DNA of 64,000 bases from an uncultured Bacteroidales bacterium (lineage in GTDB: Bacteria > Bacteroidota > Bacteroidia > Bacteroidales > DTU049), in contig CAZGIW010000001.1 in assembly GCA_964526285.1 (NCBI GenBank), positions 62,864-126,863 on the forward strand. Direction: 5' to 3'. A program made the position numbers and the translations under genes. The notes beneath the pieces are model-generated. The model did not search any database. It was not told the DNA's origin and was given only the letters and a program-made list of their open reading frames with translations. Of the stretch, positions 4,835-60,440 are shown piece after piece (the stretch's first letter is position 1; each line of letters starts with the position of its first letter).

Positions 4835-6622
4835 CTAATCCATTTTTAAAACAGCAAGAAATGCAGACTGTGGAACTTCAACATTGCCTACTTGTCTCAT
4901 GCGTTTTTTCCCCTTTTTCTGTTTTTCCAGCAATTTTCTTTTTCTTGAAATATCACCCCCATAACATTTGGCCGTCACATCTTTTCTAAATGCCCTGATG
5001 CTTTCTCTGGCTATAACTTTTGCACCAATGGCAGCCTGAATGGCGATATCAAATTGCTGGCGAGGAATAAGTTCTTTGAGTTTTTCACAAATTTTTCTGC
5101 CAAACTGATAGGCATTATCCTGATGAATCAGACATGACAAGGCATCAACGTTTTCTCCATTGAGCAAAATATCTAATCTAACAAGCTTGGCCATTTTATA
5201 GTCACTGTGATAATAATCAAAAGAGGCATAACCTTTTGAAATGCTTTTTAGTTTATCGTAAAAATCAAACACAATTTCCGAAAGAGGCATTTCCACATTC
5301 AACTCTACCCTATCGGTACTTAAATAAACCTGATTTTTCAACACTCCTCTTTTTTCAATGCAAAGGGTCATGATTTGTCCGATATATTCAGACTTTGTAA
5401 TAATACTGGCTGTTATATATGGCTCTTCAATATACTCTACCTTTGTGGAATCAGGAAGACCAAGCGGATTGTGAATTTCGTATTTTTCGCCCTTTTTTGT
5501 GTGAACAATATATGATACGTTGGGAACAGTTGTAATCACATCCACATCAAATTCTCTGTCAAGCCTTTCCTGAATTATTTCCATATGAAGCAGGCCAAGA
5601 AAACCGCATCTGAAGCCAAATCCAAGGGCAACCGAAGATTCGGGCTCAAAAGAAAGAGAAGCATCATTCAGCTGAAGTTTTTCCATTGCACCTCTCAGTT
5701 CTTCATAATCATCAGCATCAACAGGATACAGGCCGGAAAAAACCATAGGTTTTACTTCCTGAAAGCCTTCAATGGCTTTTTCGCAAGGTTTTTCAACATG
5801 TGTAATTGTATCTCCCACTCTCACTTCTTTTGCCAGCTTAATACCGCTGATGATATATCCCACATCACCGGCACCCAATGTTTTGTGGGGAACAAATTTT
5901 AACTGTAGTATACCAATTTCATCAGCATGATATTCTTTTTTGGTTGAAAGAAACTTTACAAAATCACCAGTTTTAATTGTTCCGTTAAATATGCGGAAAT
6001 AGGCAATAATTCCCCTGTATGAATTAAAAATGGAATCAAATATCAGGGCCTGAAGTGGTGCATTGAGGTCACCCGTTGGGGCAGGAATTCGCTCAATAAT
6101 TGCATCAAGCACTTTATCAACACCATACCCTGTTTTGGCGCTGACCTCAATAATGTCATCAATTGAACAACCAAGCAAATCAACAATCTGGTCTTTAACC
6201 TCATCGGGCATGGCAGAGGGCATATCCATTTTGTTGAGAATGGGAATAACCTCCAGGTCGTGTTCAAGAGCCTGATATAAATTAGAAATGGTTTGAGCCT
6301 GAATACCCTGGGTTGCATCAACAACAAGCAAAGCTCCTTCGCAGGCAGCAATAGAACGTGAAACCTCATAGGAAAAATCCACATGTCCGGGAGTATCAAT
6401 CAGATTCAAAATATATTCTTCTTTTTCGTCCTTATGAACCATTTGAATGGCATGGCTTTTAATGGTAATACCCTTTTCTCTCTCAAGGTCCATGCTGTCC
6501 AGCACCTGTTCCTGCGTTTCTCTTTCGGTGAGGGTGTCAGTAAATTGCAGCAAACGGTCGGCAAGAGTACTTTTACCGTGATCGATGTGAGCAATAATGC
6601 AAAAATTTCGAATGTTTTTCAT
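4835..6622 (-). CDS. lepA: Translation elongation factor 4
   Basis: 595 aa. [21 protein letters not shown]1 motif, [12 protein letters not shown], and the LepA-specific C-terminal region. Confidence 0.95.
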
Positions 6623-29177: not shown

Positions 29178-29300
29178 GGCAGATGAACACTCCTATTTTA
29201 AAAAACACCATATGTTAAAAATTGTTAAGCAGTTTTTTAGAACAAAAATTTCTTCCATAATTTTGCCAATTGAAAAACTGTAAATTTAAATTATGCACCA

Positions 29301-43150: not shown

Positions 43151-43222
43151 AACAAATTTGGTCAAAAGCTTCTTTTGGTTGTTATTTTGCTTCAAAATGC
43201 AAACGCAAAAAAACTTAAAACG

Positions 43223-46200
43223 ATGAAAGTAAAAAACTATCTATTCACATTTTTAGCAATCACAATGCTAATATCATGTTTCGTCAAAGTTACTCAAGCC
43301 CAGATAAATCTTGATAACGGACTTATGTTATACTACCCTTTTAGTGGAAACTTTCTTGATGAAAGCGGAAACAATAATCACGGCTCTGTATCTTCAACAG
43401 GGTGTTATCTGATCAGGGATAAAACAGGTAATCCAAATTCAGCAGTTTTTTTCAATGGAGCTCTTGAACAGGGAATGATTGAAATGCCCGATACTTTGAT
43501 TAACGGCAGATCAGAGTTCAGTATGAGCTATTGGTTTAATCCGGCTTCACTCACAAACGGGATGAGCCTTGTGGGTCAGGACAATATCCTTGAAACTGGT
43601 TTTTATACATCTTCAACTCGTGTGGTAGTTTGGCATCCAACTTCAGGTGCTGTGAATGTGACACTTTCTCAGGGAGTTGATGTTTGGCAGCATCTTGCAG
43701 TCACCTGTTCGTCAACACAAATGAAAATCTATCTCAATGGTACTCTTGTAAATACACTCAACGGCAATTATTCGCTTGGCAGTAACTCCTTTATCCCAGG
43801 AATTGGAGGAAATGTTGTCAATCAAAACAATAACACATGGTTCAGAGGAAAAATTGATGAAGTTAGATTCTACAACAGGGTATTAAATCAGGAAGAAGTT
43901 AATTTGTTGTCATCTTCAATTTCTCTTACATACAGTATTCAGAATATTTCACAAACTACAATTTGTGCAGGCTCTCAGATCAATGTTGACTATACGGTTA
44001 TAGGCACAGGTATTCCTGCAGATAATGTTTTTTCTCTTCAGCTCAGTGACGAAAACAGTAGTTTTTCTAGTCCTTTAATTCTTGCAAATCAAACAGGCAA
44101 CAGCAGTGGTTCGTTTGTTAATGTTACTGTTCCTCACTATCTTAACAATGGAAGCAACTATAAATTAAGAGTTGTGAGCAGCAAACCAATGCATGAGGGT
44201 GCTGAGTCGGGTCAGACTCTTATTGTTAACAACCCTTCTCTGGGACTTTCCACTTTGGAAAGAGATCGCATTTTGTATTATATGTTTGATATGAATACAG
44301 CTGACAGCAGCGGTTATGGAAGAGACGGGGTTGCCTATGGAGGCACAAGCTGGATTGATGACAGACATGGAAATGCCTTTTCTGCCGTTCAACTCAACGG
44401 TACAAACGGATATATAGATGTTCCTCAGGATGTGTGGTTTGACGGAAGCAATTTCACAATTGCTGCCTGGGTTAATCCTGCTTCATATAATAACTGGAGC
44501 AGAATAATGGATTTTGGAATTGGTGCCGGAAACGAAAATATAATTTTCACCTTATCAAACGGAACCACAGGCAATCTCTTTGCCAGTGTCAGAAGAGGCT
44601 CAACAACTGTTGGGTCATTGACAGGAGGACAACTACCGCTAAACAAATGGTCTCATGCTCTTCTTCGATTTGATGGGAGTAACTTAGAAATCTATATTAA
44701 CGGAAACCTCAGTGCAACTACCACTTGCGATGCACCCAGACTTGTATCAAGAACAACTTGTTATATTGGCAGAAGTACTACAGCTTCTAACGAATATGCA
44801 AATGCTGCATTTGATGATTTTATGATGTGGAACCGAGCCTTAACTCATGACGAAATTAAGGTACTGGCAAATGATGGACTGATTTTTTCAAATAGCCCTG
44901 TTTGCGAAGGAAATATCCTTCATTTGGATGCTGTCAGTATTAACAATGCCTCATATGCCTGGTCGGGCCCTCAGGGTTTTTCTTCCACTACAAAAATGAA
45001 CGAACTTTCTCCCGCTGTTGATTTGATGTCTGGAACATATCATCTTACAGTGTCAATTGATGCATGTGTATTTAATAATGCTGAAAAAGAAATATCTGTT
45101 ATTACAGCTGCATCTCAAACAACACCTTCGTTTACCGGACTACCAGGATATACTTACACAGGAGCAGCAACAAATTCTCTAACCCCCACGCCATCAGGTG
45201 GTTTTTTCAATGGACCCGGAATTACAGGAAATGTTTTTAATCCTACTGTAGCAGGAGTGGGAAATCACAATATTATTTATAGCTATATGAATACTGCTGG
45301 GTGCGTTTCAACAGCCGACAGTATTGTTGTTGTGGGACAAGGATATCTTATGGACAACAACATCATCACTGATTGCTGGGGTGGCTTTTTTGATTCAGGC
45401 GGAAGAACAGCAAATTATCAAAACAATGAAGATTATACTTTAACATTTTGTTCAGATAATGGAGAACGCATGCAATTCAACATCAAATCCATAAGTATCG
45501 GGACTGGTGATACCCTTTGGGCTTTTGACGGACCCGATACAAATTCTGAACTTATTGCCATGTATATTGCAAATTCAAACCGCGATTTTGTTTGGACGTC
45601 AGGTACTTGTATGACGTTCAGGTTTAAAAGTGATGCATCAGCAACTACATCAGGGTGGGAAGCAGAGTTTAGGTGTATGACCGACCCTTCAGTTCCAAAT
45701 GAGATAACTGATATGAGTACTGGATTCAGAACAGTTTGCAGTGGCACTTTCAGAGATCCCGGTGGTAGTGGCAATTACTCAGTTGGCACCCATCGCACGC
45801 AAACTTTCCGCTCGGTTGACGGACAGAGGCTAAAGCTTCATTTCACCATGCTGAATATCAACGGTAACAATGGCGGACACTGGCTCAGGGTGTATGATGG
45901 CCCCACCACAGCCTATCCACACATTGGAAGCTATAATGAATGGGCATGGCCTCCTGGAAGTGTTGTAGAATCCACAGGAGAATATCTTACCTTTGTGTTT
46001 GATGCAACCAATTCATCAGCAGGAAGCCGTCCCGGTTGGGAAGCCACATGGGAATGTACCACACCTGTCATGCATGTAATAAGCATTCAGGATAACGATA
46101 CAACTATCTGTGAAGCAGTGTTTTGCGATAATGGCGGCCTTAATGCAAACTATGATCACAACTCAAAAGACACAATAACACTGAGTGCAATGCCCGGAAA

Positions 46201-49200
46201 AATTCTCAGCTTGACATTCAATCACAACAACACGCAGTTTGGAGCAGGAGATACTTTGTGGGTGTATGATGGATCGGATGCAACAGCCAATCTGAAAGCA
46301 ATGTATATTACCACTTCACGAATGGATCCCATTTATTCTTCGGGTACAGATTTTACTTTTGTTTTTCATTCAGACGGGACAGGAAATGGTCGTGGATGGC
46401 AGGGTTATTTGTCATGCATTGATGCTCCAGCTCCTTTGGTTACCTATGATATGAGCACCGGTGTCAGGGTTGTATGTGACGGATTTTTCAGAGATCCCGG
46501 TGGTGGTGGCAATTACTCAGTTGGCACCCATCGCACGCAAACTTTCCGTTCGGTTGACGGACAGAGGCTAAAGCTTCATTTTACAATGCTGAACATCAAT
46601 GGCAACAATGGTGGTCACTGGCTTAGGGTTTATGACGGCCCCACCACAGCTTATCCACACATTGGAAGCTACAACGAATGGGCATGGCCTCCCAACAGCA
46701 GAGTTGAAAGCACAGGCGAATATCTTACCTTTGTGTTTGATGCAACAGAAACATCAGCAGGTTCACGTCCCGGTTGGGAAGCCACATGGGAATGTACCAC
46801 ACCTGTCATGCATGTAATAAGCATTCAGGATAACGATACAACTATCTGTGAAGCAGTGTTTTGCGACAACGGAGGCCTTAGTGCAAACTATGCCCACAAC
46901 TCAAGAGACACAATAACATTGAGTGCAATGCCCGGGAAAATACTCTGTCTGACCTTCAATCACAACAACACGCAGTTTGGCGCAGGAGATACTTTGTGGG
47001 TTTATGATGGATCGGATGCAACAGCCAATCTGAAAGCAATGTATATTACCAATTCACGTATGGATCCCATATATTCTTCCGGAACAGATTTTACTTTTGT
47101 TTTTCATTCAGATGGCACAGGAAATAGTCGTGGATGGCAGGGTTATTTGTCATGCATTGATGCTCCTGCTCCTTTGGTTACCTATGATATGAGCACCGGT
47201 GTCAGGGTTGTATGTGACGGATTTTTCAGAGATCCTGGAGGTGGTGGCAATTATTCCGTTAATACCCATCGCACGCAAACATTCCGTTCGGTTGACGGAC
47301 AGAGGCTGAAGCTTCATTTCACCATGCTGAATATCAACGGCAACAATGGCGGACACTGGCTAAGGGTGTATGATGGCCCCACCACAGCTTATCCACACAT
47401 TGGAAGCTATAATGAATGGGCATGGCCTCCCAACAGCAGAGTTGAGTCCACAGGAGAATATCTTACGTTTGTGTTTGATGCAACCAATACATCAGCAGGA
47501 AGTCGTCCCGGCTGGGAAGCCACCTGGGAATGTACCACTCCTTCATTACCACATATTTATGTTGGAGACAGTGCAAGCCCCATATGTGATGCTGTTATTT
47601 ATGATCACGCCGGCCCTGCTGTAAACTACGGAACAAACAGAAAAGACACAACAGTTGTATGTTCAGACAACAGTCAGCTATTACAGGTTATTTTCAACCA
47701 TAACGAAACAGGATTTGCCGCCGGAGACACATTGTGGATTTTCGACGGCAGCAGCACACTTTCGCCTCCGCTTGGAATGTACATAACAGGGTCGCGAATT
47801 GATCAGATCGTTTCTTCGGGCACATGTCTTACTTTTGTATTCTCTTCAGACAATGCAAACCAACATCGTGGATGGCAGGGTGTAGTATCCTGCATAACCG
47901 TTCCTCCTGCTCAGATAAGCTATAACATGAGTACAGGTGTGCGTTATGTGTGTAGCGGAAAATTTCTTGACCCGGGCGGAACAGGCAACTATCCAAGAGG
48001 AACCTGGGTTCAAACCTATACTTCATACAACGGAGAAAGGTTGAGGTTTACCCGTAACTCATTCAATGTGAACGGAAACAATGGCGGTCATCCATTTTCA
48101 GTGTATGACGGACCTTCAACGGCATCGCCACTCATTGGTACTTATACAAATTTTGCATTTCCTCCTGCTGTATTTCAGTCCACAGGTTCAAGCTTAACAT
48201 TTGCTTTCAACAGCACCAACATGTCGGCGGGCACTACAGCCGGATGGGATTTCGGTATTAATTGTTTCTCAGGTAATCCAATTGATGTTTTGTGGTTAAC
48301 AAGTCCTGTTTGTGCAGGTGATACTCTTTTGATTCACTATGAACTCAACGATACTGTTGGAGCAGGAAACGTGTTCACTGCACAATTGAGTGACATGAAC
48401 GGAAGCTTTGGCTCACCTGTAAATATTGGCACATTTGCTTCAGAGACATCAGGAACAATGGAGGTGGTTATACCAGCGGGCACACCTGCAGGAAGCGGAT
48501 ACAGAATCAGGCTTATGTCATCAGTGCCTGTTCAGATTGGAAACCCCTCTCCAAATCCAATGATTGTTTATGCAGCTCCTTCTGTTCCTGTGGTTTCTCC
48601 TTCCGGGCCGGTTCAGATTTGCAGTGGTTCACAAGAGGTTTTGCTTTCAGTTGCTCCCCAGTCAGGGGTTAATTACAAATGGTATCGTGACGGATTATAT
48701 CCTGTTGGAAGCAATTTGCCATATTATACTGCTCAAACAAGTGGTCAGTATTCTGTTGAACTGGAAAATTCATGTGCAACAGTTTCTTCAAATATTGTTA
48801 CTGTTGATGCTGTTTTGCTTCCTATTCCCCCGGTTATTTATGCACCTGTTGACACTGGAATTTGTGATGGGCAACAGGTGTTGTTAGTTACAGATTCTCT
48901 GGGTGGAGTTTCATATCAATGGAAAAACAATGGCATTGATACAGGAGCAAATCAGCATTTTCTCTTAACAGGAACTCCGGGAGTATATCATGTGGAAATT
49001 ACAAATGCATGTGGAACAGTAGCTTCTGTAAATAGCAGTGAGATTATCATAACAGGAGCTGTTCCTTCAGCCCCATTAATAGTGGCATCAGGTCAACCCG
49101 ATATTTGTGACGGAGACGAAATTGAATTAAGCGTTCCTCTTATGGCAAACCATAATTACGAGTGGAGAAGAAACGGGCTGACCATTGGAACAGACACAAA

Positions 49201-50035
49201 TTTTCTAATTGTCAATCAGGCAGGCCAATACACCTTGTTAATTTCAAATCATTGCGGAAGTGCACAAAGCTCTAATATGATTGAAGTAACAGTAACGACA
49301 GTTCCCCCCGTGGTCAGCATCAATGCAAACGGACCACTGGAATTTTGCCAGGGAAATGATGTTCAGCTTAGTGTATCAAATATTCCAGCAACAGATTATC
49401 AATGGTTTCATAATGGCGTCCCCACGGGCAGCAATCAACCCTCCTTTGTTGCCCTGGCCGGAGGCCAATATACTGTTTCGCTTGAAAATTTCTGCGGAGT
49501 TTCACCTGCTTCTGATACAGCCAATGTGATTGTTAATGATTTACCTGTGGTAACTTATACACAAACACCTGCATTAATTTGTGAAGGATGGGGAGATGTG
49601 CTGCTTGAGGGTGGCTTGCCTGCCGGCGGAACATATTCAGGTCCTGGCGTTTCTGGAAACTACATAAATGCTTCAGTTGCAGGAATTGGTACACATATTC
49701 TAACTTACACTTATACAGATATTAATAATTGTCAAAATGTTGATACTTCTCTTGTAATTATTGATGCATGCACAGATATGATTATAAGTTTCAGGGAAAA
49801 AACATCTGTTTATCCAAACCCGGCTCAGGACGTAATATATCTGTTAAGTTCAAAATATGAATCAATCAGTTCAGTCGCAGTGTATAATATGAATGGAAAA
49901 AAAGTTATCCCTGAAGAAAAGACATATTCAACAAATCATTCTATCAATATTGCCCATCTTACACAAGGCGTTTATTTGATAAAAGTTAACTATATAGATG
50001 ATAGTTTTGTCATGCTGAAGTTAATAAAACAGTAA
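43223..50035 (+). CDS. Giant T9SS-secreted adhesin-like protein (2x LamG, about 8 CUB-like, 5 Ig-like modules, T9SS sorting domain)
   Basis: Signal peptide at ATG 43223. Two Laminin_G_3-type domains (LDESGNNNHG...FRGKIDEVRFYNRVL). Alternating CUB-like modules (F.DPGG.GNY...; DTLW.YDG). Y[KQE]W...G repeated Ig-like modules. C-terminal VYPNPAQDVIYL...GVYLIKV. Confidence 0.75.
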   Translation: MKVKNYLFTFLAITMLISCFVKVTQAQINLDNGLMLYYPFSGNFLDESGNNNHGSVSSTGCYLIRDKTGNPNSAVFFNGALEQGMIEMPDTLINGRSEFSMSYWFNPASLTNGMSLVGQDNILETGFYTSSTRVVVWHPTSGAVNVTLSQGVDVWQHLAVTCSSTQMKIYLNGTLVNTLNGNYSLGSNSFIPGIGGNVVNQNNNTWFRGKIDEVRFYNRVLNQEEVNLLSSSISLTYSIQNISQTTICAGSQINVDYTVIGTGIPADNVFSLQLSDENSSFSSPLILANQTGNSSGSFVNVTVPHYLNNGSNYKLRVVSSKPMHEGAESGQTLIVNNPSLGLSTLERDRILYYMFDMNTADSSGYGRDGVAYGGTSWIDDRHGNAFSAVQLNGTNGYIDVPQDVWFDGSNFTIAAWVNPASYNNWSRIMDFGIGAGNENIIFTLSNGTTGNLFASVRRGSTTVGSLTGGQLPLNKWSHALLRFDGSNLEIYINGNLSATTTCDAPRLVSRTTCYIGRSTTASNEYANAAFDDFMMWNRALTHDEIKVLANDGLIFSNSPVCEGNILHLDAVSINNASYAWSGPQGFSSTTKMNELSPAVDLMSGTYHLTVSIDACVFNNAEKEISVITAASQTTPSFTGLPGYTYTGAATNSLTPTPSGGFFNGPGITGNVFNPTVAGVGNHNIIYSYMNTAGCVSTADSIVVVGQGYLMDNNIITDCWGGFFDSGGRTANYQNNEDYTLTFCSDNGERMQFNIKSISIGTGDTLWAFDGPDTNSELIAMYIANSNRDFVWTSGTCMTFRFKSDASATTSGWEAEFRCMTDPSVPNEITDMSTGFRTVCSGTFRDPGGSGNYSVGTHRTQTFRSVDGQRLKLHFTMLNINGNNGGHWLRVYDGPTTAYPHIGSYNEWAWPPGSVVESTGEYLTFVFDATNSSAGSRPGWEATWECTTPVMHVISIQDNDTTICEAVFCDNGGLNANYDHNSKDTITLSAMPGKILSLTFNHNNTQFGAGDTLWVYDGSDATANLKAMYITTSRMDPIYSSGTDFTFVFHSDGTGNGRGWQGYLSCIDAPAPLVTYDMSTGVRVVCDGFFRDPGGGGNYSVGTHRTQTFRSVDGQRLKLHFTMLNINGNNGGHWLRVYDGPTTAYPHIGSYNEWAWPPNSRVESTGEYLTFVFDATETSAGSRPGWEATWECTTPVMHVISIQDNDTTICEAVFCDNGGLSANYAHNSRDTITLSAMPGKILCLTFNHNNTQFGAGDTLWVYDGSDATANLKAMYITNSRMDPIYSSGTDFTFVFHSDGTGNSRGWQGYLSCIDAPAPLVTYDMSTGVRVVCDGFFRDPGGGGNYSVNTHRTQTFRSVDGQRLKLHFTMLNINGNNGGHWLRVYDGPTTAYPHIGSYNEWAWPPNSRVESTGEYLTFVFDATNTSAGSRPGWEATWECTTPSLPHIYVGDSASPICDAVIYDHAGPAVNYGTNRKDTTVVCSDNSQLLQVIFNHNETGFAAGDTLWIFDGSSTLSPPLGMYITGSRIDQIVSSGTCLTFVFSSDNANQHRGWQGVVSCITVPPAQISYNMSTGVRYVCSGKFLDPGGTGNYPRGTWVQTYTSYNGERLRFTRNSFNVNGNNGGHPFSVYDGPSTASPLIGTYTNFAFPPAVFQSTGSSLTFAFNSTNMSAGTTAGWDFGINCFSGNPIDVLWLTSPVCAGDTLLIHYELNDTVGAGNVFTAQLSDMNGSFGSPVNIGTFASETSGTMEVVIPAGTPAGSGYRIRLMSSVPVQIGNPSPNPMIVYAAPSVPVVSPSGPVQICSGSQEVLLSVAPQSGVNYKWYRDGLYPVGSNLPYYTAQTSGQYSVELENSCATVSSNIVTVDAVLLPIPPVIYAPVDTGICDGQQVLLVTDSLGGVSYQWKNNGIDTGANQHFLLTGTPGVYHVEITNACGTVASVNSSEIIITGAVPSAPLIVASGQPDICDGDEIELSVPLMANHNYEWRRNGLTIGTDTNFLIVNQAGQYTLLISNHCGSAQSSNMIEVTVTTVPPVVSINANGPLEFCQGNDVQLSVSNIPATDYQWFHNGVPTGSNQPSFVALAGGQYTVSLENFCGVSPASDTANVIVNDLPVVTYTQTPALICEGWGDVLLEGGLPAGGTYSGPGVSGNYINASVAGIGTHILTYTYTDINNCQNVDTSLVIIDACTDMIISFREKTSVYPNPAQDVIYLLSSKYESISSVAVYNMNGKKVIPEEKTYSTNHSINIAHLTQGVYLIKVNYIDDSFVMLKLIKQ
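45713..47926 (+). repeat. Three tandem 738-bp (246-codon) repeat units inside the adhesin gene, plus a diverged partial fourth unit to about 48270
   Basis: Unit starts (ATGAG[TC]AC) fall at 45713, 46451, 47189 and 47927, exactly 738 bp apart. Units 1-3 are roughly 90% identical by eye, and the differences are distributed mosaically. Confidence 0.9.
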
Positions 50036-54040: not shown

Positions 54041-54178
54041 GCTGTCTCAAAACGCTCATTTTTTGATTTTCATCGACTTATTTGCCCCTTCCCTTAAGGG
54101 AGTAAGTCGCTGAAAATCAGCGTACACCCTAAAGTTGGGGCAATAATAATTTCCGGTAGATGTTGGTTTTGAGACAGC
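54041..54178. other. 138-bp structured element bounded by a perfect 13-bp inverted repeat (MITE-like or ncRNA)
   Basis: GCTGTCTCAAAAC (54041-53) and GTTTTGAGACAGC (54166-78). Internal stems: CGACTTA/TAAGTCG, palindrome TCCCTTAAGGGA, CGCTGA-AAA-TCAGCG, TTGCCCC/GGGGCAA. Confidence 0.5.
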
Positions 54179-54401
54179 TGCAACAGAAAACAAGTTTTCT
54201 TTACTGCTGATTCAAAACAAACATAGCCTTTTGTATTGCTGAAAATTTGTACAAACACAAATAATAGTACTGAACAGGTACTAATTTTTCATTACTGACC
54301 GAAAAACAAGTAAAATTTTGGGAACTGAAATCAATTCATGTATTTATGATAATCAGCCTTTCAGTAGGGTGTTTTTATTGAAATCTGTTGCAGGGAGGGA
54401 G

Positions 54402-54445
54402 GCATGGTCTTATATGTCAGCCGTTTGCTTGATTGGTGGCTGGCT
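54402..54445 (-). repeat. Junction module copy F (3-prime half only; array terminus)
   Basis: Directly after the stop of ORF 54446: AGCCAGCCACCAATCAAGCAAACGGCTGACATATAAGACCATGCC. It aligns with the post-stop halves of copies A and B (GCCAGCTAATCAAG..ACGGCTGA) but lacks the ACTCAAC box and the promoter. Confidence 0.6.
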
Positions 54446-55024
54446 TTATTCTTCTTTTAATGTTGTTCCTAATATTTTTATCGTTTTAGAAAGTTCAATA
54501 AATGAAGGAAAAAGTTCTTTAAATTCAACTTTATCCTCTGTTGATAATACTGCTGTAACAATTGTATTCTTGCATTCAATAATTAGTATTACTTCATTTC
54601 TTCCATTCGGATATTCATAAGTAATCGTCATATAATTTCCAGTCAAATAGTCATCACTTTTGATGTTGTCAAATTTTTGATTTAAAGTATCTATTTTTAC
54701 TTCCCTAAATTTGTCTGATATGTAATCGTTATTTCCTTTTATCCAAGCATTTAATTCAGGTGTGCTATTATAGTCAATACCATAAACATACATATAAGTT
54801 TCAGAACTTGCTTCTCTATCAGGCTTTATAAAAAAAGGCAATTGGTCATTTTGAGCTTGTAGCCAATCTTTAGGAATATCAACAAAAATTGTGTGATTAT
54901 GTCCAACTACCATTTTAGATTGTCCGAAGTTCTGTCCGATAAATAGAATTGTCAAGATTAATATTGATGTGAGTTTCTTCATCGTGACTATGTTTTTTGG
55001 GTTATGTCTTGTGCTTCTGTTCAT
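54446..55024 (-). CDS. Hypothetical secreted protein (second gene of a two-gene cassette)
   Basis: 192 aa. Hydrophobic signal segment (MKKLTSILILTILFIGQNFGQ). The ATG at 55024 overlaps the upstream stop (ATGA). An alternative ATG lies at 54982. Confidence 0.45.
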   Translation of the reverse strand: MNRSTRHNPKNIVTMKKLTSILILTILFIGQNFGQSKMVVGHNHTIFVDIPKDWLQAQNDQLPFFIKPDREASSETYMYVYGIDYNSTPELNAWIKGNNDYISDKFREVKIDTLNQKFDNIKSDDYLTGNYMTITYEYPNGRNEVILIIECKNTIVTAVLSTEDKVEFKELFPSFIELSKTIKILGTTLKEE

Positions 55025-56283
55025 AGTTTAATTCTTGCTAATTTTTTAAGCCCTTCTTTGTATTCATCAAATGTTGCATTAATTCCGTTTATCAAAAGCT
55101 TATAGAGGCCTTCTACATCTTTTTTCCCTAAATCGACTAATTTGTAGCTTTCACTGGTCCATACACATGTCCAGTTCCACCAATGCTTATTAGTGCCAAA
55201 GCTTTCAGGCAGCTTAAACATGCTAAGTGTTTTATTTCTATGTGCTTGCTTATCATATGTGTTATATCTCTTATCATAAAAACCAACCATAAGTCTTAAA
55301 GAAAAGAAATCATCAATATCTGGTTTTGTTTGTTCAGAATGGAGCATGTATAAACCATGAAAACCATTCTTGTTGCCAATATTGTACAACTCAGGAATGT
55401 AAATTTTAAATTCCTTTGGGGTATTACTTTTTTCAGGATGGTATTTAAAAAAGATATTATTTAAACTAAAAGGCAAATTATTTGATGCCATAATTCGAGT
55501 TTCAATTTCATCAAAAACGTTTTTAACATTTGGGGTGTATTGGTTTATAAGCTTTATTGCTAGTCTGTTCTCTTTATCAAAATAAAGTTCTTTAACTAAT
55601 TCAGAGATTTCTTTTTCCATTTTTTGATTGTTGGTTAATTTATCAATGTGGTTTTTAAGTATTTCTAAAAACAATTCTCCTTGACCTTTCGAATTCAATA
55701 ATAATTGTTCGCAAACATTTGAAAGCACTCTGTATGAAACAGAAACACAAGGGCATTTTTTGTTTTCATCGCTTGTTTGAGCCAATATCCCTTCAGGCGT
55801 AAGATAAATTAGCAATTTAGAAATATTCTGAAACGAAAAACATAAAGAATTTTGATAATCTCTTATTTGGTCATTCTGTTCGCCACTATCAACTTTGTTT
55901 TCAATTCCTACAACAGCTTTGATTTTTCCTTTTTGGTCCGTGATTTTTAAAAGAATATCCAGCCTTCTTGAACTCTCTGTACTCCATTCTGTAATACAAG
56001 TTATTCTAGTTCCTTCTTCTTTTGGCAAGGATTTAGAAAAACTCATTAATTCTGGTAGTTGTTGCATCAATACCCTGAAAGCAGATTGACCAAGACCATG
56101 GTTTTGATTGGAGTCAAGCAAATAAGCAAAAAGCTTTGACCAAGCCATTTCGTCAATTAATTCGTTGAAAACTGTTAATAAATCGAATTTTCTTTGACTT
56201 TCATGAATTAGCATGCCAACTTCCTGAAGGTTTTTAAATTCAGACGTTTCAGTTAATTTATTTATAAGTGTTGTATCATTCAT
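55021..56283 (-). CDS. PD-(D/E)XK nuclease-family protein
   Basis: 420 aa. Core RRLDILLK...VVGIENKVDSGEQNDQIRDY gives a D...E-x-K restriction-endonuclease-like motif followed by a Q..R.Y helix. The C-terminal region is unrecognised. Confidence 0.55.
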   Translation of the reverse strand: MNDTTLINKLTETSEFKNLQEVGMLIHESQRKFDLLTVFNELIDEMAWSKLFAYLLDSNQNHGLGQSAFRVLMQQLPELMSFSKSLPKEEGTRITCITEWSTESSRRLDILLKITDQKGKIKAVVGIENKVDSGEQNDQIRDYQNSLCFSFQNISKLLIYLTPEGILAQTSDENKKCPCVSVSYRVLSNVCEQLLLNSKGQGELFLEILKNHIDKLTNNQKMEKEISELVKELYFDKENRLAIKLINQYTPNVKNVFDEIETRIMASNNLPFSLNNIFFKYHPEKSNTPKEFKIYIPELYNIGNKNGFHGLYMLHSEQTKPDIDDFFSLRLMVGFYDKRYNTYDKQAHRNKTLSMFKLPESFGTNKHWWNWTCVWTSESYKLVDLGKKDVEGLYKLLINGINATFDEYKEGLKKLARIKL

Positions 56284-56487
56284 TCCTGATGTTGTCTTTT
56301 ATCATAAGGGATAACCATCCAGTGCTTCATTCAACATTTCCCTCACAAAAATAAACAAATTCCCTAAACCCCATCATAAAAATTATTCAACTGGCGGAAA
56401 GTGATAATGATGAGTGTGCATGGTTGAGTGCTTGCGGTTGTTTGACTGTCAGCTGTATGCCCGATTAGCGGTTCGTGCTTTATTCTT
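56284..56487 (-). repeat. Junction module copy A (full)
   Basis: Contains GCTAATC, CAGCTGACAGTCAAAC, the ACTCAAC box (plus strand GTTGAGT 56423-29), a hairpin with loop TTTCCGCCAGTTGA, a -7 box, the GTTGAAT box (plus strand ATTCAAC 56329-35), and ATGAAGCAC. Confidence 0.75.
56346..56353 (-). promoter_or_regulatory. Bacteroidetes -7 promoter box TATTTTTG (module A)
   Basis: Matches TAnnTTTG. It lies 15 nt upstream of the conserved ATG at 56330. Confidence 0.5.
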
Positions 56488-56868
56488 CTATTCATTGTAA
56501 ATACTCGCAAACTCTTTCCAAAGAATTAATGAATCGTTTACTAAATCATATTCATAAATTTCTTTGGTTAAACTGTCAACGAAAATCAATTTGTCTGTCA
56601 CATATCTGCATTCAAAACTATGTCCAATTTTGACCATTGCATAATTTCTTTCATTTCGTTTTGTTATCTCTTTTATGTAAGTTACAGGGTGTCCGTCAAC
56701 TTGCGTCAAACGTTCTTTGTTGCTTTCCAAATATTTAATTATGTATTCGTCTGCCCATAGTGCCACTTCTGGAATAGTGTCTACTTGTGGATTGTCTAAC
56801 TTTTTTCCTGTCGTGTTTGAGCAAGATGTCAAAAAAAATACTGACAATATGTAAAGTAAATGTTTCAT
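56488..56868 (-). CDS. Hypothetical lipoprotein (cassette)
   Basis: Lipobox MKHLLYILSVFFLTSCS at ATG 56868. The in-frame upstream ATG at 56913 lies in the conserved module. Confidence 0.5.
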   Translation of the reverse strand: MKHLLYILSVFFLTSCSNTTGKKLDNPQVDTIPEVALWADEYIIKYLESNKERLTQVDGHPVTYIKEITKRNERNYAMVKIGHSFECRYVTDKLIFVDSLTKEIYEYDLVNDSLILWKEFASIYNE

Positions 56869-57058
56869 CGTTTCTGTCGTTCTAAAATGACCGCTAACTT
56901 CCAAGTGCTTCATTCAACGTTTTCACAACAAAAATAAACAAACTTTTCAAATTCAAATTAAAAACTCCTCAATTGGCAGAAAAGGATTGAGAAGTTTGCA
57001 TCGTTGAGTGCTTGTTGATGTTTGACCATCAGCCGTCTACTTGATTAGCTGGCGTATT
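56869..57058 (-). repeat. Junction module copy B (full)
   Basis: Best-conserved copy. Plus-strand ATTCAAC at 56912-18 and GTTGAGT at 57003-09. Inner pair CAAACTTTTCAA / TTGAGAAGTTTG. Loop CTCAATTGGCAGAAAAGGATTGAG. Confidence 0.75.
56929..56936 (-). promoter_or_regulatory. Bacteroidetes -7 promoter box TATTTTTG (module B)
   Basis: TAnnTTTG match with TTTG motifs upstream, 15 nt upstream of the conserved ATG at 56913. Confidence 0.5.
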
Positions 57059-58900
57059 TTATTCATCATCAAAGCGGTCTCCTTTTATTAATTCACCTTC
57101 TTTATAATTTGCCTTTTTTACAATATCGCCATTATCATTCCACTCTATCCATTTTCCAATTCGTTTACCTGCAGTATAATTGCCTTCTCTAAATTTTTTA
57201 CCATTCTCAAACCATATTGTCATCAAACCGTCTTCAATATCATTTTTATAGTTTATTTCAGCCATCTTTTGGATTGGAATATCCTCATCTGACTGAGCTG
57301 TCAATGACCAGCCAGCTAAATCACCACTAGTAAAATCTAATGGAACATTTTGTTTTCCACTTGGATACCATAATATCCATTTCCCATTTTTTGTATTCTG
57401 ATAATATTCGCCTTCACTTTCAATTGCACCATTATCATAGAATGTTTTCCATAATCCATGATATGCTCCATTAATCATTTGTCCAGTTTCCATTACAACG
57501 CCATTCTCATAATAAAAAGAAAAAACACCGTTAAAAATTCCATCTTTTAGTTCTCCTTCAGTTCTATAATTTCCATTTATCCAAAACTCATAAAATTTCC
57601 CAGTATATGGTTCATTTTTATAATATATCAATTCTTTTTTCCACGTTAAAGACAGTCCATTCATTAATTGTATGCGGCTATAAAATAGTTGAGATTTAAC
57701 TCTATTAATAAAATAGTCCTTGTTTTTAACTTTATTTTCGGAACCTGTAATGATTCTATAATTCTCATCAGTTGTAAAATCTTGTTCGTTTTTACCTACT
57801 TTGATTTCATACTTTTGACCTAAAAAGGAAAATACAGATGTAACAAATTCATCATCTTCTGTGATTATCATATTTTGCAAAGAACTATCAAGTTTGGTAA
57901 TAAAAACGTTATTATCATAATGTGAAGCTACTAAATTTACAAGCCTTTGATTTGCTTTCATATACTGTTGTTCTCTAACTCCACTGCCAAAGTAGGTTAT
58001 TATAAAAGTTAAGTTTTCTTTTACTGCTTTATCGAATTGTTCCATTTTTTCATACAGAAAAACATACCATTCTAAGATATGGATGTCATGTTTAAGTCTA
58101 TGAGCATTTGAGTAAGTATAAAAGGGATAGGTTTTTTCTTTATTTAACCATTCAAGTGATTTTTCCCAATCTCCTCTATACTCAAACACATATGCCATAC
58201 CCTGGCATGCTTTGTTTTTGAAGTTGGCAAGTGGATATGCAAAATTACCTGTTTCCATACTGTCAACTAGGTCTGAATTTAAAATTCTGAGATACCAATT
58301 TTCAGCATTTTCATAATCTTTTGACCAGAGATAACTGTCAGCAATAATCAAAGATAATTGCCCGTATCTTAGTCCAGTAGTGTCTTTTACAATAGACAAC
58401 CCCCGTTTAGCATAATCAATTGCTTTTTTATAATTTTTCTGATGATAATTATTGATTGCATTATTATATGCTTCATCTATCTTAATAAGTGCTTCATTAA
58501 TTAAAACATTTTCAATTTTCACACAAGAATTATCGCAACCTTCAATAATATCAATGTAATCATTAATATTATTTATAGGTTGAAAATGCAAACTAAATTT
58601 TATAGAATCATGGTCAAATTTATAAGAATCAGGACAGATTTTCATTCCTTCTGTTTTTAAAAGCTTGTATGTTTTACTGTCAGATTTTCCAATAATATAG
58701 TAAGAAGTATCAACACAAAACCATCCTTCATCTGCATAAATTGAAAAATATATGACAGTTTCAGTTGTTGACATAACAACTCTTTCAATTTTTAAATCTT
58801 TATGTGTTGTTTTATCAAATGGGGGGTCTACAATAATAGTTTGACAAATTACTGTTCCTACAATAAGAGAGGTAATTAAAAATAAAATAGTTCTTTTCAT
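57059..58900 (-). CDS. Secreted TPR plus MORN-variant/YwqK-like repeat protein (cassette)
   Basis: 613 aa, signal peptide, central TPR-like helices. The C-terminal 200 aa carry G.W..[FW]Y.NG....EG repeats of the same type as ORF 104..1615. Confidence 0.55.
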   Translation of the reverse strand: MKRTILFLITSLIVGTVICQTIIVDPPFDKTTHKDLKIERVVMSTTETVIYFSIYADEGWFCVDTSYYIIGKSDSKTYKLLKTEGMKICPDSYKFDHDSIKFSLHFQPINNINDYIDIIEGCDNSCVKIENVLINEALIKIDEAYNNAINNYHQKNYKKAIDYAKRGLSIVKDTTGLRYGQLSLIIADSYLWSKDYENAENWYLRILNSDLVDSMETGNFAYPLANFKNKACQGMAYVFEYRGDWEKSLEWLNKEKTYPFYTYSNAHRLKHDIHILEWYVFLYEKMEQFDKAVKENLTFIITYFGSGVREQQYMKANQRLVNLVASHYDNNVFITKLDSSLQNMIITEDDEFVTSVFSFLGQKYEIKVGKNEQDFTTDENYRIITGSENKVKNKDYFINRVKSQLFYSRIQLMNGLSLTWKKELIYYKNEPYTGKFYEFWINGNYRTEGELKDGIFNGVFSFYYENGVVMETGQMINGAYHGLWKTFYDNGAIESEGEYYQNTKNGKWILWYPSGKQNVPLDFTSGDLAGWSLTAQSDEDIPIQKMAEINYKNDIEDGLMTIWFENGKKFREGNYTAGKRIGKWIEWNDNGDIVKKANYKEGELIKGDRFDDE

Positions 58901-59073
58901 TCCTTTATGTTGTTTTTGGTGTTAAATATGCCAGCCAAGGGTTGCGGCTCTGGTTTTGGGCGGGATTTTTCCCCCACTAATCTTTCATACTGCCACGCAA
59001 ATATACAAATAATTCTAATCTGACAAGAAAAGATGAACCCCGCCTAAAACCAAGCTGCGGTTATGCACATGGC
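58901..59073 (-). repeat. Junction module copy E (sequence variant, same architecture)
   Basis: A 24-nt bulged inverted repeat, GTTGCGGCTCTGGTTTTGGGCGGG (58941-64) and CCCCGCCTAAAACCAAGCTGCGGTT (59038-62), flanks a -7 box. Confidence 0.65.
58998..59005 (-). promoter_or_regulatory. Bacteroidetes -7 promoter box TATATTTG (module E)
   Basis: TAnnTTTG match centred between the two arms of the inverted repeat. Confidence 0.45.
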
Positions 59074-59565
59074 CTATTTAATTTTCTTATATCTTGTCAC
59101 TGGTTTTATACCGTATATCTTGTCAAAAACTTGCGCCGATTTGTCTATTTTTACTTTTGTTTTTGAAAAACTTTTTTTCCAAAGATATTTGAGTTTATCC
59201 TTATTAATTATAAACGTGTCTGTCCATTCAGAACCGACGACTTCTCTAGTTGAATAAAAATAAATTCTATTTTTTTTCTTAATCCAAAACCCTGTCTTTG
59301 TCAAAGGTATTGAGCTATCAAATGACCTTGTGTCACTATAATAGTCCTTTTGTTCATATGTCGAGTCTGGGTTGAGTTTAATAAATGATTTAGAATATTT
59401 TATTTCTGTCATGTTCTTAAGTTTGCCGTTCTTAACAGTGGATTTCTTTTGTTTTGTTGTTTCTTCTCCAACATATTTTATTGTGTCAGGTCGGTTGTTG
59501 AGTTGACCATACCCACTTGCTTGTCCAAGAAATAAAACAGTCAATATGAGCAAAATGTTTTTCAT
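59074..59565 (-). CDS. Hypothetical secreted basic protein (cassette)
   Basis: 163 aa, signal peptide MKNILLILTVLFLGQASGYGQ, lysine-rich. Confidence 0.45.
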   Translation of the reverse strand: MKNILLILTVLFLGQASGYGQLNNRPDTIKYVGEETTKQKKSTVKNGKLKNMTEIKYSKSFIKLNPDSTYEQKDYYSDTRSFDSSIPLTKTGFWIKKKNRIYFYSTREVVGSEWTDTFIINKDKLKYLWKKSFSKTKVKIDKSAQVFDKIYGIKPVTRYKKIK

Positions 59566-59787
59566 TCGGTTTTGTTTTTAATTATTGTGCACAACTCATT
59601 TACAAACGAAACACGCTCTCAACAAACCATTCTTTTTTTATTGGTGATAAAGATGCTTGTTTCACCCTCACAAAAATAAACAAAATCTTTAATTGGCAGA
59701 AAGAAATTTGAGATGAGTGCATCGTTGAGAGCTGCTGGATTATTGGGTGTTGGTAGTCTAATCGATTATGCGGTCCGTGCTACGCGG
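59566..59787 (-). repeat. Junction module copy C (full, with insertion)
   Basis: Perfect 9-bp inverted repeat GCTCTCAAC (59615-23) / GTTGAGAGC (59724-32). Conserved AATTGGCAGAAAG loop and CACAAAAATAAACAAA promoter block. Confidence 0.7.
59671..59678 (-). promoter_or_regulatory. Bacteroidetes -7 promoter box TATTTTTG (module C)
   Basis: TAnnTTTG match inside the inverted repeat. Confidence 0.45.
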
Positions 59788-60156
59788 TCAATGGTTAAGT
59801 AAGTCTGGGTGTCTTACAATAGCTCTATGTAATACTTTGTCCAAACATTGCTTATGAGAAAATATTGTCTGAGATTCGCCAGTGTCTTTGTCTACTATTA
59901 TTGTAAGCTGTACGGTTTTTTCAAAGGGCAAACTATCTCCACAGAAACAACACATAGCGGAATAGTCCACCGTCCAAGAATTTAAAGGAACACTAAACTC
60001 TTCGAAAGCAAACTCTTTAGCCATTTGCTCAGTTTCCTGAACGTAGTCTCTTATACATATATTTTGTTTGTCATAAATGTAAAGATAAAAACCAACTTCG
60101 GGTTTGTCCTCAACTATCGCAAATGTCAAATTATTATATTCTGCAAGTAATCTCAT
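59788..60156 (-). CDS. Hypothetical cytoplasmic protein (first cassette)
   Basis: 122 aa from ATG 60156 (MRLLAEYNNLTF...). In-frame upstream ATGs at 60186 and 60204 lie in or next to the conserved module. Contains a CCFCG...HKQC possible zinc-binding pair. Confidence 0.4.
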   Translation of the reverse strand: MRLLAEYNNLTFAIVEDKPEVGFYLYIYDKQNICIRDYVQETEQMAKEFAFEEFSVPLNSWTVDYSAMCCFCGDSLPFEKTVQLTIIVDKDTGESQTIFSHKQCLDKVLHRAIVRHPDLLNH

Positions 60157-60186
60157 GTCGCTTGTCCTTGTTTTACCATGACACAT

Positions 60187-60300
60187 AACTTTCAAGTGTT
60201 TCACTCATTCTTTCAAAAGCAAAAATAAACAAACTTTTGAATTTCAACTGAAAAATTCTTCAATTGGGAGAAAAATTATATTGAGATCAGTAATAACAGA
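60187..60300 (-). repeat. Junction module copy D (5-prime half only; tRNA-proximal array start)
   Basis: Shares with copy B the hairpin loop (TTTTCTCCCAATTGAAG), the promoter block and ATGAAACACTTG. It lacks both RYYYAAC/GTTRRRY boxes and the post-stop half. Confidence 0.6.
60220..60227 (-). promoter_or_regulatory. Bacteroidetes -7 promoter box TATTTTTG (module D)
   Basis: TAnnTTTG match 15 nt upstream of the ATG at 60204. Confidence 0.45.
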
Positions 60301-60324: not shown

Positions 60325-60362
60325 GGAAAACAAAGAGAGAAACACATGTGTTTCTCTCTCTG
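60325..60362 (-). terminator. Rho-independent terminator downstream of tRNA-fMet
   Basis: Perfect palindrome GAGAGAAACACATGTGTTTCTCTC, followed on the minus strand by TTTGTTTT. Confidence 0.7.
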
Positions 60363-60368
60363 TTTTAG

Positions 60369-60440
<72 letters not shown>

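Follow-up and report, generated by a model that had tools for sequence, protein, structure and literature searches.

A putative integron-type cassette array with predicted promoters in its junctions and no nearby integrase, beside a tRNA-Met gene of an uncultured Bacteroidales bacterium

A repeated sequence module occupies the spacers of a small cluster of co-oriented genes in a 64,000-nucleotide stretch of an uncultured Bacteroidales bacterium (contig CAZGIW010000001.1, positions 62,864 to 126,863; this whole stretch is referred to below as the window, and all coordinates are window coordinates). We propose that this module is the inter-cassette junction of an array of integron type, similar to integron cassette arrays without an integrase (CALINs), which has no integrase nearby and is located at a GTT beside a tRNA-Met gene. 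Under this interpretation, to which we assign a probability of about 0.55, the junctions are decayed attC-type sites that have merged with a promoter block, such that each cassette is expressed separately. Classical integron cassettes are promoterless and rely on a single platform promoter.

The array comprises six genes in five transcription units and, as with all genes of the array region, these are encoded on the minus strand. The full module is shared by three spacers, A (56284-56487), B (56869-57058) and C (59566-59787). Two further copies are partial: D, next to the tRNA gene (~60182-60297), consists of the right half only, that is, the promoter block, and matches the right half of B at 78% identity across 105 nt, while E, after the last gene (54401-54445), consists of the left part only. 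Overall, module copies are 62-78% identical over 100-200 nt, and the remaining spacer, F (58901-59073), is unlike A-C. Read on the minus strand, B contains an R''-type box CAGCTAAT (57044-57051), the motif TTTCTGCCAATTGA (56969-56982) and the box TATTTTTG (56929-56936); the corresponding elements are CCGCTAAT (R''-type, 56464-56471), TTTCCGCCAGTTGA (56387-56400), TATTTTTG (56346-56353) and a GTTATCC (56309-56315) in A, and CGCATAAT (59765-59772), TTTCTGCCAATTAA (59689-59702) and TATTTTTG (59671-59678) in C. D holds TTTCTCCCAATTGA (60260-60273), TATTTTTG (60220-60227), AAACACT (60195-60201) and GTTATGTG (60182-60189); it lacks the left box, and GAATGAGT replaces the GTTGAAT found in A and B. 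E holds CCACCAAT (54432-54439), ACGGCTGA (54417-54424) and CCATGCC (54401-54407). A block of ~100 bp is common to A, B, C and D, ending in AA(C/T)GTTGAAT in A and B and in other sequences in C and D. Modules A-C measure ~160 nt from box to box and carry two GTT boxes 13 nt apart, the second of which forms the right end of the module and is of the GTTAGCGG type (GTTAGCGG itself, GTTATCC or GTTATGT). This second, outer set of boxes (CYAAT...GTTAGCG/GTTATCC) is homologous to the CGCTAAC...GTTAGCG boxes of the related arrays described below.

The boundaries of the cassettes can be placed by homology, using cassette 4, an open reading frame (ORF) for a 126-aa lipoprotein (56488-56868, minus strand). 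This cassette recurs in five other arrays (L032, L088, L089, L090 and L091) and has homologs in several Bacteroidota assemblies; the window copy is the N-terminal-domain-only form of a two-domain protein of 217-240 aa in other arrays. Identity with L088 is 94% over 409 nt, extending from GTTAGCGG (56891-56898, minus strand, entered at 56898) to the stop region of the window gene. In L032 (78% identity) and L089 homology begins at the same G as in L088, and the sequence just upstream is unrelated among the four contexts (CTTGGAA, GCGAAAC, GCAAAAC and TAAACAA). At the other end, ACGAACCGCTAA is common to the window and the L088 site just past the stop codon, and the 3' end of the cassette is a CGCTAA(C/T) box right after that codon. 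These homology limits show that the recurring unit runs between two boxes, TAA(C/T) and GTT, that lie at the outermost ends of the modules, and on the alignments cassette boundaries can be assigned to the GTTAGCGG-type GTT, in the G|TT position typical of integrons, and to the TAA(C/T) boxes.

An earlier, sequence-only reading of this DNA had instead taken ACTCAAC and GTTGAAT, the outer boxes of an inverted repeat inside the module, as the R'' and R' boxes of an attC-like site. That assignment does not survive the comparison of arrays: the right-hand boundary is at GTTAGCGG, 13 nt downstream of GTTGAAT, the 3' end is not ACTCAAC, and the expected break at the G|TT of R' is seen at GTTAGCGG and not at GTTGAAT. 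Moreover, conservation among A, B and D continues through and past the GTTGAAT position. The left box may belong to the upstream site, as its right end in degenerate form (CAAGCACTCAAC|GATGCA, similar to CAAGCGCAAAAAC|GTTGTA in L088), in which case the inverted repeat would be a by-product of the palindromic AAC|GTT consensus.

The arrays that share cassette 4 provide a view of what the window junctions may once have been. In L032, L088, L090 and L091 the arrays consist of small, unrelated genes in a single orientation, whose products include toxin-antitoxin pairs, Mrr, a MORN_2 protein and a reverse transcriptase; L089 lies at a contig end, where only the cassette-4 homolog and its upstream junction are visible. 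Sites in L032, L088 and L091 are very uniform in length (135-139 nt or 166-167 nt) and follow the scheme nTAAC-A-stem...stem-RAAAC-GTTRnnG, while L090 has short sites of ~60 nt and L089 one short hairpin site. When 12 long sites were aligned, 79.7% of cells were paired, compared with 26-45% in slid controls, and the covariation score was 0.267 versus 0.158 in shuffles (reached in 0 of 500). Outer pairs past TAAC/GTTA are often broken, which is what one would predict if the next cassette contributes the distal portion of the right-hand box. One cassette of this kind, at L032:575-2119, encodes a 514-aa reverse transcriptase (RVT_1) and has hairpin sites on both sides.

To extend the family, we used a covariance model of the 135-139-nt hairpins (R1). 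On DNA outside its training set R1 identified further sites in L088 and L091, and overall it scored 29-72 bits at more than 90 sites outside the window array, more than 80 of which are further sites. Matches in IMG/VR numbered 80 in 42 loci, in arrays of up to 11 sites. These phage-contig arrays often adjoin genes for DNA methyltransferases, Mom or RNA ligase, not integrases. Arrays of the family are present in predicted phage contigs such as L114 (5322-12901), L121 and L130, as well as ~25 other IMG/VR loci. No recombinase was found within 10 kb of the L088, L032, L090 or L091 arrays, and a motif screen of 47 loci (L088-L134) yielded two tyrosine recombinases, in L092 and L118, both loci without an R1 match.

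One window junction can be linked directly to this family. Junction F contains a decayed 138-nt member (58929-59066, minus strand), recognized by profile, arm duplex and alignment to junction J2 of L032. It has GCATAAC at 59060-59066, a stem formed by GGTTTTAGGCGGGG and CCCGCCCAAAACC, and a loop containing TATATTTG at 58998-59005, while CTTGGCTGGCA stands where the R' box GTTGGTGGCA should be. The stem is retained (arm duplex z = -3.75), and an nhmmer profile of the family detects the junction with E = 0.002 in the 6.5-kb array region and 0.018 in the whole window. A box TATATTTG held in the loop is also found in the L091 site at 7078. Junctions A, B and C have diverged further from the hairpin family than F. 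Their left ends (CYAAT and ACGGCTGA) nevertheless match junction J0 of L032 and, by eye, the sequence after the last cassette of L090. The best R1 score on the array was 9.3 bits (E = 0.68), in a coding region, with nothing in modules A-C, and Rfam had no match to the modules.

The modules have also lost the potential to form hairpins. Whole modules folded as DNA were no better than shuffles on either strand, with z-scores of +2.0 (A), +0.4 (B) and -0.1 (C) for the top strand and +2.3, +0.1 and -0.8, respectively, for the bottom strand. Restricting the fold to the sub-region singled out by the sequence-only reading gave z = -1.7/-2.3 in B and +1.7 in A. Arm duplexes of A-C have z-scores of -0.4 to -1.3 vs -3.8 to -4.4 for the L032 sites. 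A small hairpin (CTTCTCAAT-loop-ATTGAGGAG) was considered as a conserved structure and rejected, as only B has a good version of it, with a weak one in C and D and none in A. No sites resembling intrinsic terminators were detected in the modules.

What the modules do share is a predicted promoter. The sigma-A promoters of Bacteroidota, reportedly defined by Bayley and colleagues in 2000, are said to have the consensus TTTG at -33 and TAnnTTTG at -7, with the TTTG ~19-21 nt upstream of the -7 box. Each junction carries a TAnnTTTG -7 box oriented toward the next gene, as had been noticed from the sequence, and in A, B, C and D it takes the form TATTTTTG. A TAnnTTTG is located 68-113 nt upstream of all five transcription units of the array, compared with 14 of 38 other window genes and an expectation of ~10% (0.1 per upstream region). 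The region of this box is also the most strongly conserved block of the module. The description of the promoter as complete holds for the -7 box, which is perfect, but not for the -33 element: TTTG occurs at 17 nt in B only, D has GTTG, and A has none. In the other arrays just 7 of 34 junctions contain TAnnTTTG, so that a promoter box in every junction is peculiar to the window array. The promoter core, TTTAGGGAA-TTTGTTTATTTTTGT...AAYGTT, recurs in junction J2 of L088, directly before the next gene, and in a pair of 111-nt repeats in L031.

Two observations touch on this core and its neighboring motif. In L031, a metagenome-assembled genome (MAG) of the Chitinophagaceae, a solitary cassette-4 homolog lies between the two repeats (5789-5899 and 6462-6572), which are direct, 94% identical and contain the same core (TGTATTTTTGGAGGGAGAATGTTG); an IS110-family transposase gene is nearby. 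Within the window, ATTTTGCCAATTGAAAA at 29260-29276, upstream of an M1 peptidase gene with a type IX secretion system (T9SS) sorting domain, resembles the module motif TTTCTGCCAATTGA. Because it overlaps the TAATTTTG box of the peptidase gene, the motif TTTCTGCCAATTGA may be promoter-related.

Comparison with related genomes indicates that the array is an insertion. In the closest relatives by Era identity (L019, 91%; L020 and L022, 76% and 72%), the array and its module are absent, and the tRNA-Met gene is followed by a different sequence or none. Homology to L019 (blastn) stops at 60295, within the GTT of GTTATTACTG (60288-60297, minus strand), and the similarity of D to the modules starts a few bases later. 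On this alignment the left end of the insertion coincides with the GTT; the matching position is GAT in B and C and CAT in A. IntI1 inserts into genomic sites with the consensus GTT/GWT (Loot et al., bioRxiv 2022.09.11.507474), and by analogy the position of the array fits such GWT sites. Contigs from six other assemblies (ENA, JGI) have the same gene order at 100% identity and often break within a module; none shows a rearrangement of the array.

These observations lend themselves to a model in which each junction would have three parts. Right after the stop codon would lie the degenerate left end of the attC-type site of the upstream cassette (the CYAAT box and ACGGCTGA). This would be followed by the shared block of ~100 bp, beginning at the G/C-AT position equivalent to the GTT at the left end of the array, containing TTTCTGCCAATTGA and the Bacteroidota -7 box, and ending in A and B with AA(C/T)|GTTGAAT. 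Some 13 nt further on, the second GTT box (GTTAGCGG, GTTATCC or GTTATGT) would mark the start of the next cassette. The array was presumably assembled by integron-like recombination at G|TT, catalyzed in trans, and its junctions are probably now poor or inactive substrates for recombination. Their present role would be to equip every cassette of this array, which lacks an attI or Pc platform, with a separate promoter.

Several points weigh against this interpretation. The outer inverted repeat is retained in all three full copies, and in C it includes a perfect 9-mer that the by-product explanation given above leaves unexplained; together with the compensatory and repairing changes described below, this 9-mer hints at selection on the outer pair. 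The predicted promoters have a -33 element that is weak or absent. No integrase is linked to the window array or to related arrays, and the term integron-type is drawn solely from the anatomy of the sites. The flank at the right end of the array is not conserved in relatives. Finally, the module exists in only three full copies, whose history may have involved insertion of a promoter block, internal deletion or duplication of a site.

The first of these points bears on an alternative in which the modules are working, if unusual, attC sites, with R'' at ACTCAAC (GCTCTCAAC in C), R' at GTTGAAT (GTTGAGAGC in C), the promoter in the variable center and cassettes still moving at G|TTGAAT. Much of what the sequence-only reading reported here is accurate. 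Copy B reads exactly as quoted on the coding strand; the outer boxes of A and B (ACTCAAC/GTTGAAT) and C (TCTCAAC/GTTGAGA) fit the RYYYAAC and GTTRRRY consensus sequences, and they span 98 nt in B (57003-57009 and 56912-56918), 101 nt in A (56423-56429 and 56329-56335) and 118 nt in C, where the perfect 9-mer pair GCTCTCAAC/GTTGAGAGC is indeed present (59724-59732 and 59615-59623). For A and B, finding a 7-mer partner with no more than one mismatch is within chance expectation (P ~0.27-0.29 in shuffles); the 9-mer of C, which occurred in 0 of 5000 shuffles, is the only significant outer pair. Compared with A and B, this 9-mer includes one compensatory change (A-T to T-A) along with two repairing ones. 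The context of the right-hand box in B, AAAAC|GTTGAAT, also matches the right-end consensus of the hairpin family, RAAAC|GTTR, the promoter core in junction J2 of L088 ends in AAAACGTT right at the next gene, and junction F and the L091 site show that hairpin sites can hold TATATTTG in the loop.

Inner pairing does not bear this alternative out. The reported inner pairs exist as sequences, AAACTTCTCAA/TTGAAAAGTTT in B with spacers of 5 and 21 nt and CATCAT/ATGATG in A, but the covariation claimed for them is not found: the alignment places the right arm of B (TTGAAAAGTTT) opposite TTAGGGAATTT in A, which is unable to pair with the left arm of A, and the ATGATG of A is ~13 alignment columns away from the right-arm columns of B. 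A perfect 6-bp inverted repeat is at chance within the 87-nt interior of A (P = 0.49 in shuffles). The 12-nt repeat of B, with one mismatch, is less expected (P = 0.02); it is absent from A, C and D and competes with a closer partner, TTGAGGAGTTT. An L''/L' pair with short, near-symmetric spacers was not found in any copy, and C and D have no inner pair at all. Three independent arrays place the homology boundary of cassette 4 another 13 nt downstream, A/B/D conservation runs past the proposed R' box, and D lacks both boxes. Together with the lack of fold stability in A, the absence of an R1 score and the unrearranged contigs of the other assemblies, this makes working sites unlikely. An active, promoter-carrying site retains some credibility mainly on account of the perfect, compensated 9-mer of C. 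Of the attC claim as first made, then, integron-type cassette junctions stand, while the placement of the boundary, the L-box pair, fold stability, covariation and a score with the family model do not.

The half-modules at the array ends raise another alternative, a system similar to recombinase-associated polyimmunity arrays (rAID-1) or otherwise independent of an integron integrase, in which a tyrosine recombinase of XerD or phage type, encoded elsewhere, integrates circular promoter-gene units in tandem. Crossover would take place between the module halves (at ~CAAC|SATGCA), leaving the right half D and the left half E at the two ends, as is seen; the CCATGCC of E resembles the C|CATGCA of A. 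Low GC content, co-orientation, repeated intergenic motifs, small exported proteins and MORN_2 are all shared with the arrays of Ross et al., and the adjacent tRNA gene is a common target of tyrosine integrases. However, no recombinase was identified by the array or in the scanned ORFs of the 64-kb window, and it is the 5' recombinase that defines rAID-1. D and E have no common core, the far end of the array has no second copy of the tRNA 3' end, and GTT/TAAC boxes delimit cassette 4 where it sits in arrays with hairpin sites. We give this alternative a small chance.

A similarly small chance attaches to the suggestion that the modules and the hairpins with a promoter box in the loop (F and the L091 site at 7078) are live sites of a yet undescribed cassette system of Bacteroidota chromosomes and phages. 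In such a system, the attachment site would donate a promoter to each captured gene, and the recombinase, encoded in trans, would be something other than a classical IntI.

The distribution of the module bears on the two remaining alternatives. Within the window, module motifs are over-represented and restricted to 54.4-60.3 kb (one motif occurs 7 times vs 0.85 expected, and the other two behave alike). A scan of one genome per species (185,579 species, 596 Gbp) with the pattern TTTCYNCCARTT-N(4-34)-TTGTTTATTTTTG returned 16 single matches; both of the two that were read are chance occurrences, and the remainder are mostly from Firmicutes. JGI metagenomes returned only contigs identical to the present locus, although the organism is in those samples, and two other module patterns had no match in viral contigs. 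As these scans gave no other copy, the module is known from this array alone. Searches with the remaining cassettes were similarly unproductive: viral contigs contained no relatives of cassettes 1 and 5, and the other window cassettes found nothing in the fetched arrays beyond a distant MORN match.

Such confinement to a single array, together with the degree of identity among copies, would suit a purely regulatory repeat, that is, a promoter or leader segment copied between spacers by duplication or gene conversion, with incidental inverted repeats. The strong conservation of the -7 box region and the lack of terminators or stable structure also agree with this idea. It leaves unexplained the TAAY/GTT module ends that are homologous to hairpin sites elsewhere, the half copies at the array ends, and the presence of the promoter core beside AAYGTT in the unrelated arrays L088 (J2) and L031, and we regard it as improbable. 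Least convincing of all, and to our mind highly improbable, is the miniature inverted-repeat transposable element (MITE) raised in the sequence-only reading, a small promoter-carrying element with CAAC...GTTG terminal inverted repeats and a 7-bp AAGCACT target-site duplication inserted in the spacers: AAGCACT does flank the boxes directly in A (56427-56433 and 56321-56327) and B (57007-57013 and 56904-56910), and B without the segment between them forms a ~62-nt attC-shaped hairpin, at only z = -1.2, but AAGCACT is identical in A and B and is thus part of the repeat unit rather than a target-site duplication, alignment of the termini does not yield proper terminal inverted repeats, the corresponding empty site of A does not fold, and dispersed copies are absent from the window, the genomes, the JGI metagenomes and the viral contigs scanned.

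Returning to the cassette array that we favor, its cargo and setting are as follows. The tRNA-Met gene (60368-60440, minus strand) was identified with ARAGORN and Rfam (tRNA, 68 bits), and the array starts ~70 nt downstream of it, with all six ORFs co-oriented on its 3' side. On the other side of the tRNA gene are era and der, and a convergent K+ channel gene lies beyond the far end of the array. GC content is 31.6% in the array, with individual genes at 29-35%, vs 36-39% in the flanks. Cassette 1 (59788-60159) encodes 123 aa without a family match, and cassette 2 (59074-59565) 163 aa. The 613-aa product of cassette 3 (57059-58900) has TPR and MORN_2 repeats (Pfam). Cassette 5 (55021-56283) encodes a 420-aa PD-(D/E)XK protein (Pfam PDDEXK_4, E = 3e-18) that matches PDC-S26 (E = 3e-26), a candidate defense family of PADLOC, and overlaps by 4 nt with cassette 6 (54446-55024, 192 aa), which has no promoter box of its own; all of these are on the minus strand. 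Judged by eye from the translations, the products of cassettes 2, 3, 4 and 6 have N-termini resembling signal peptides or lipoprotein signal peptides. By analogy, this cargo resembles the defense and immunity cargo of sedentary integrons and rAID-1 arrays. A Pfam scan of 44 window ORFs (all of at least 150 aa bar three) revealed no recombinase domain, and intI, attI and Pc were not found beside the array, where the flanks are occupied by tRNA-Met, era and der.

Additional features of the window and its relatives were noted in the course of this analysis. Besides cassette 3, a second, chromosomal MORN_2-repeat protein is encoded at 104-1615 (E = 2.5e-41), and a MORN_2 cassette is also present in L091. 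On the 3' side of the tRNA-Met gene, at 60327-60366, a terminator-like 22-nt palindrome is followed by CATTCTG-rich repeats, several hairpin copies of which occur between small genes of L019 (9212-9278, 9366-9396 and 9768-9860). Approximately 220 nt past the last cassette is a 138-nt element (54041-54178) whose ends form a perfect 13-bp inverted repeat (GCTGTCTCAAAAC...GTTTTGAGACAGC) and either strand of which folds very strongly (-31 kcal/mol, z = -6.7). Its length equals that of the hairpin site family, and it had no match in Rfam, with R1 or in viral contigs. Farther away, a 2286-aa ORF (43175-50035) contains three tandem copies of a 738-nt repeat at 45709-47484 and traces of a fourth, with 86% identity over the 300-nt reported copies; L019 has a comparable protein of 2310 aa.

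In a phylum whose complete genomes are nearly without integrons, one cassette recurs across several Bacteroidota arrays with TAAC/GTT boxes at its boundaries, and a well-conserved, covarying hairpin site of ~137 nt is present in MAGs and many phage-like contigs. In one array, hairpins have given way to a promoter box at each junction. Provided that these boxes are active, they would represent a route by which an orphaned cassette array stays expressed without attI or Pc, and an example of recombination sites decaying into regulatory DNA. The candidate defense or immunity genes of the array (PDC-S26 and MORN_2) bear on the stockpiling of such genes outside the gut Bacteroidales.

Among known systems, the likeness is only functional for the promoter-early stem-loop (PeSL) cassettes of T4-type phages, reportedly described by Arbiol and colleagues in 2010 as units of a promoter and an inverted repeat that flank small accessory genes in hyperplastic regions. 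These are thought to shuffle genes via homologous recombination and are said to lack TAAC/GTT boxes. A closer setting is provided by CALINs in phage genomes, including that of a Polaribacter phage (Qi et al. 2023, PMC9892861): the hairpin family that borders cassette 4 elsewhere forms IMG/VR arrays near methyltransferase and Mom genes, in a situation similar to that of the Polaribacter phage CALIN, although the window array itself is chromosomal. R1 found no site in Polaribacter phage P12002L, whose attC sites have been validated with IntI1.

The rAID-1 arrays of gut Bacteroidales (Ross et al. 2019, bioRxiv 10.1101/471110; PMC12247911) are defined by a XerD-like tyrosine recombinase on the 5' side, sharing more than 44% identity with BF9343_RS08045, and by at least two co-oriented downstream genes with GC content of at most 41% and repetitive intergenic motifs. 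As in these arrays, the window has low-GC, co-oriented short genes in a Bacteroidota host, encoding exported or immunity-like proteins, with six genes at 29-35% GC separated by repeated modules; the likeness of the intergenic sequences, which Ross et al. called reminiscent of integrons, is drawn from their description. The window array differs in having no 5' XerD-like recombinase, and its host is environmental, not one of the gut Bacteroidales.

Overall, the comparison is closest with CALINs, that is, integron cassette arrays without an integrase (Cury et al. 2016, PMC4889954; Neron et al. 2022, PMC9024848), even though complete genomes of Bacteroidota contain almost no integrons (PMC9024848). 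Modules A-C depart from CALIN sites in their length of ~160 nt without L-box pairing or hairpin stability and in their pair of GTT boxes, separated by 13 nt. A further difference is the promoter box that every junction of the window array carries, whereas promoters are rare within integron cassettes (PMC4889954). On the other hand, no intI is nearby, as in most CALINs; the genes are unrelated, co-oriented and mostly small, and each cassette has a single junction beginning immediately past the stop codon; the related arrays have covarying imperfect hairpins; and terminal TAAY...GTT boxes delimit the same cassette in four arrays, with the boundary at the right-hand GTT.

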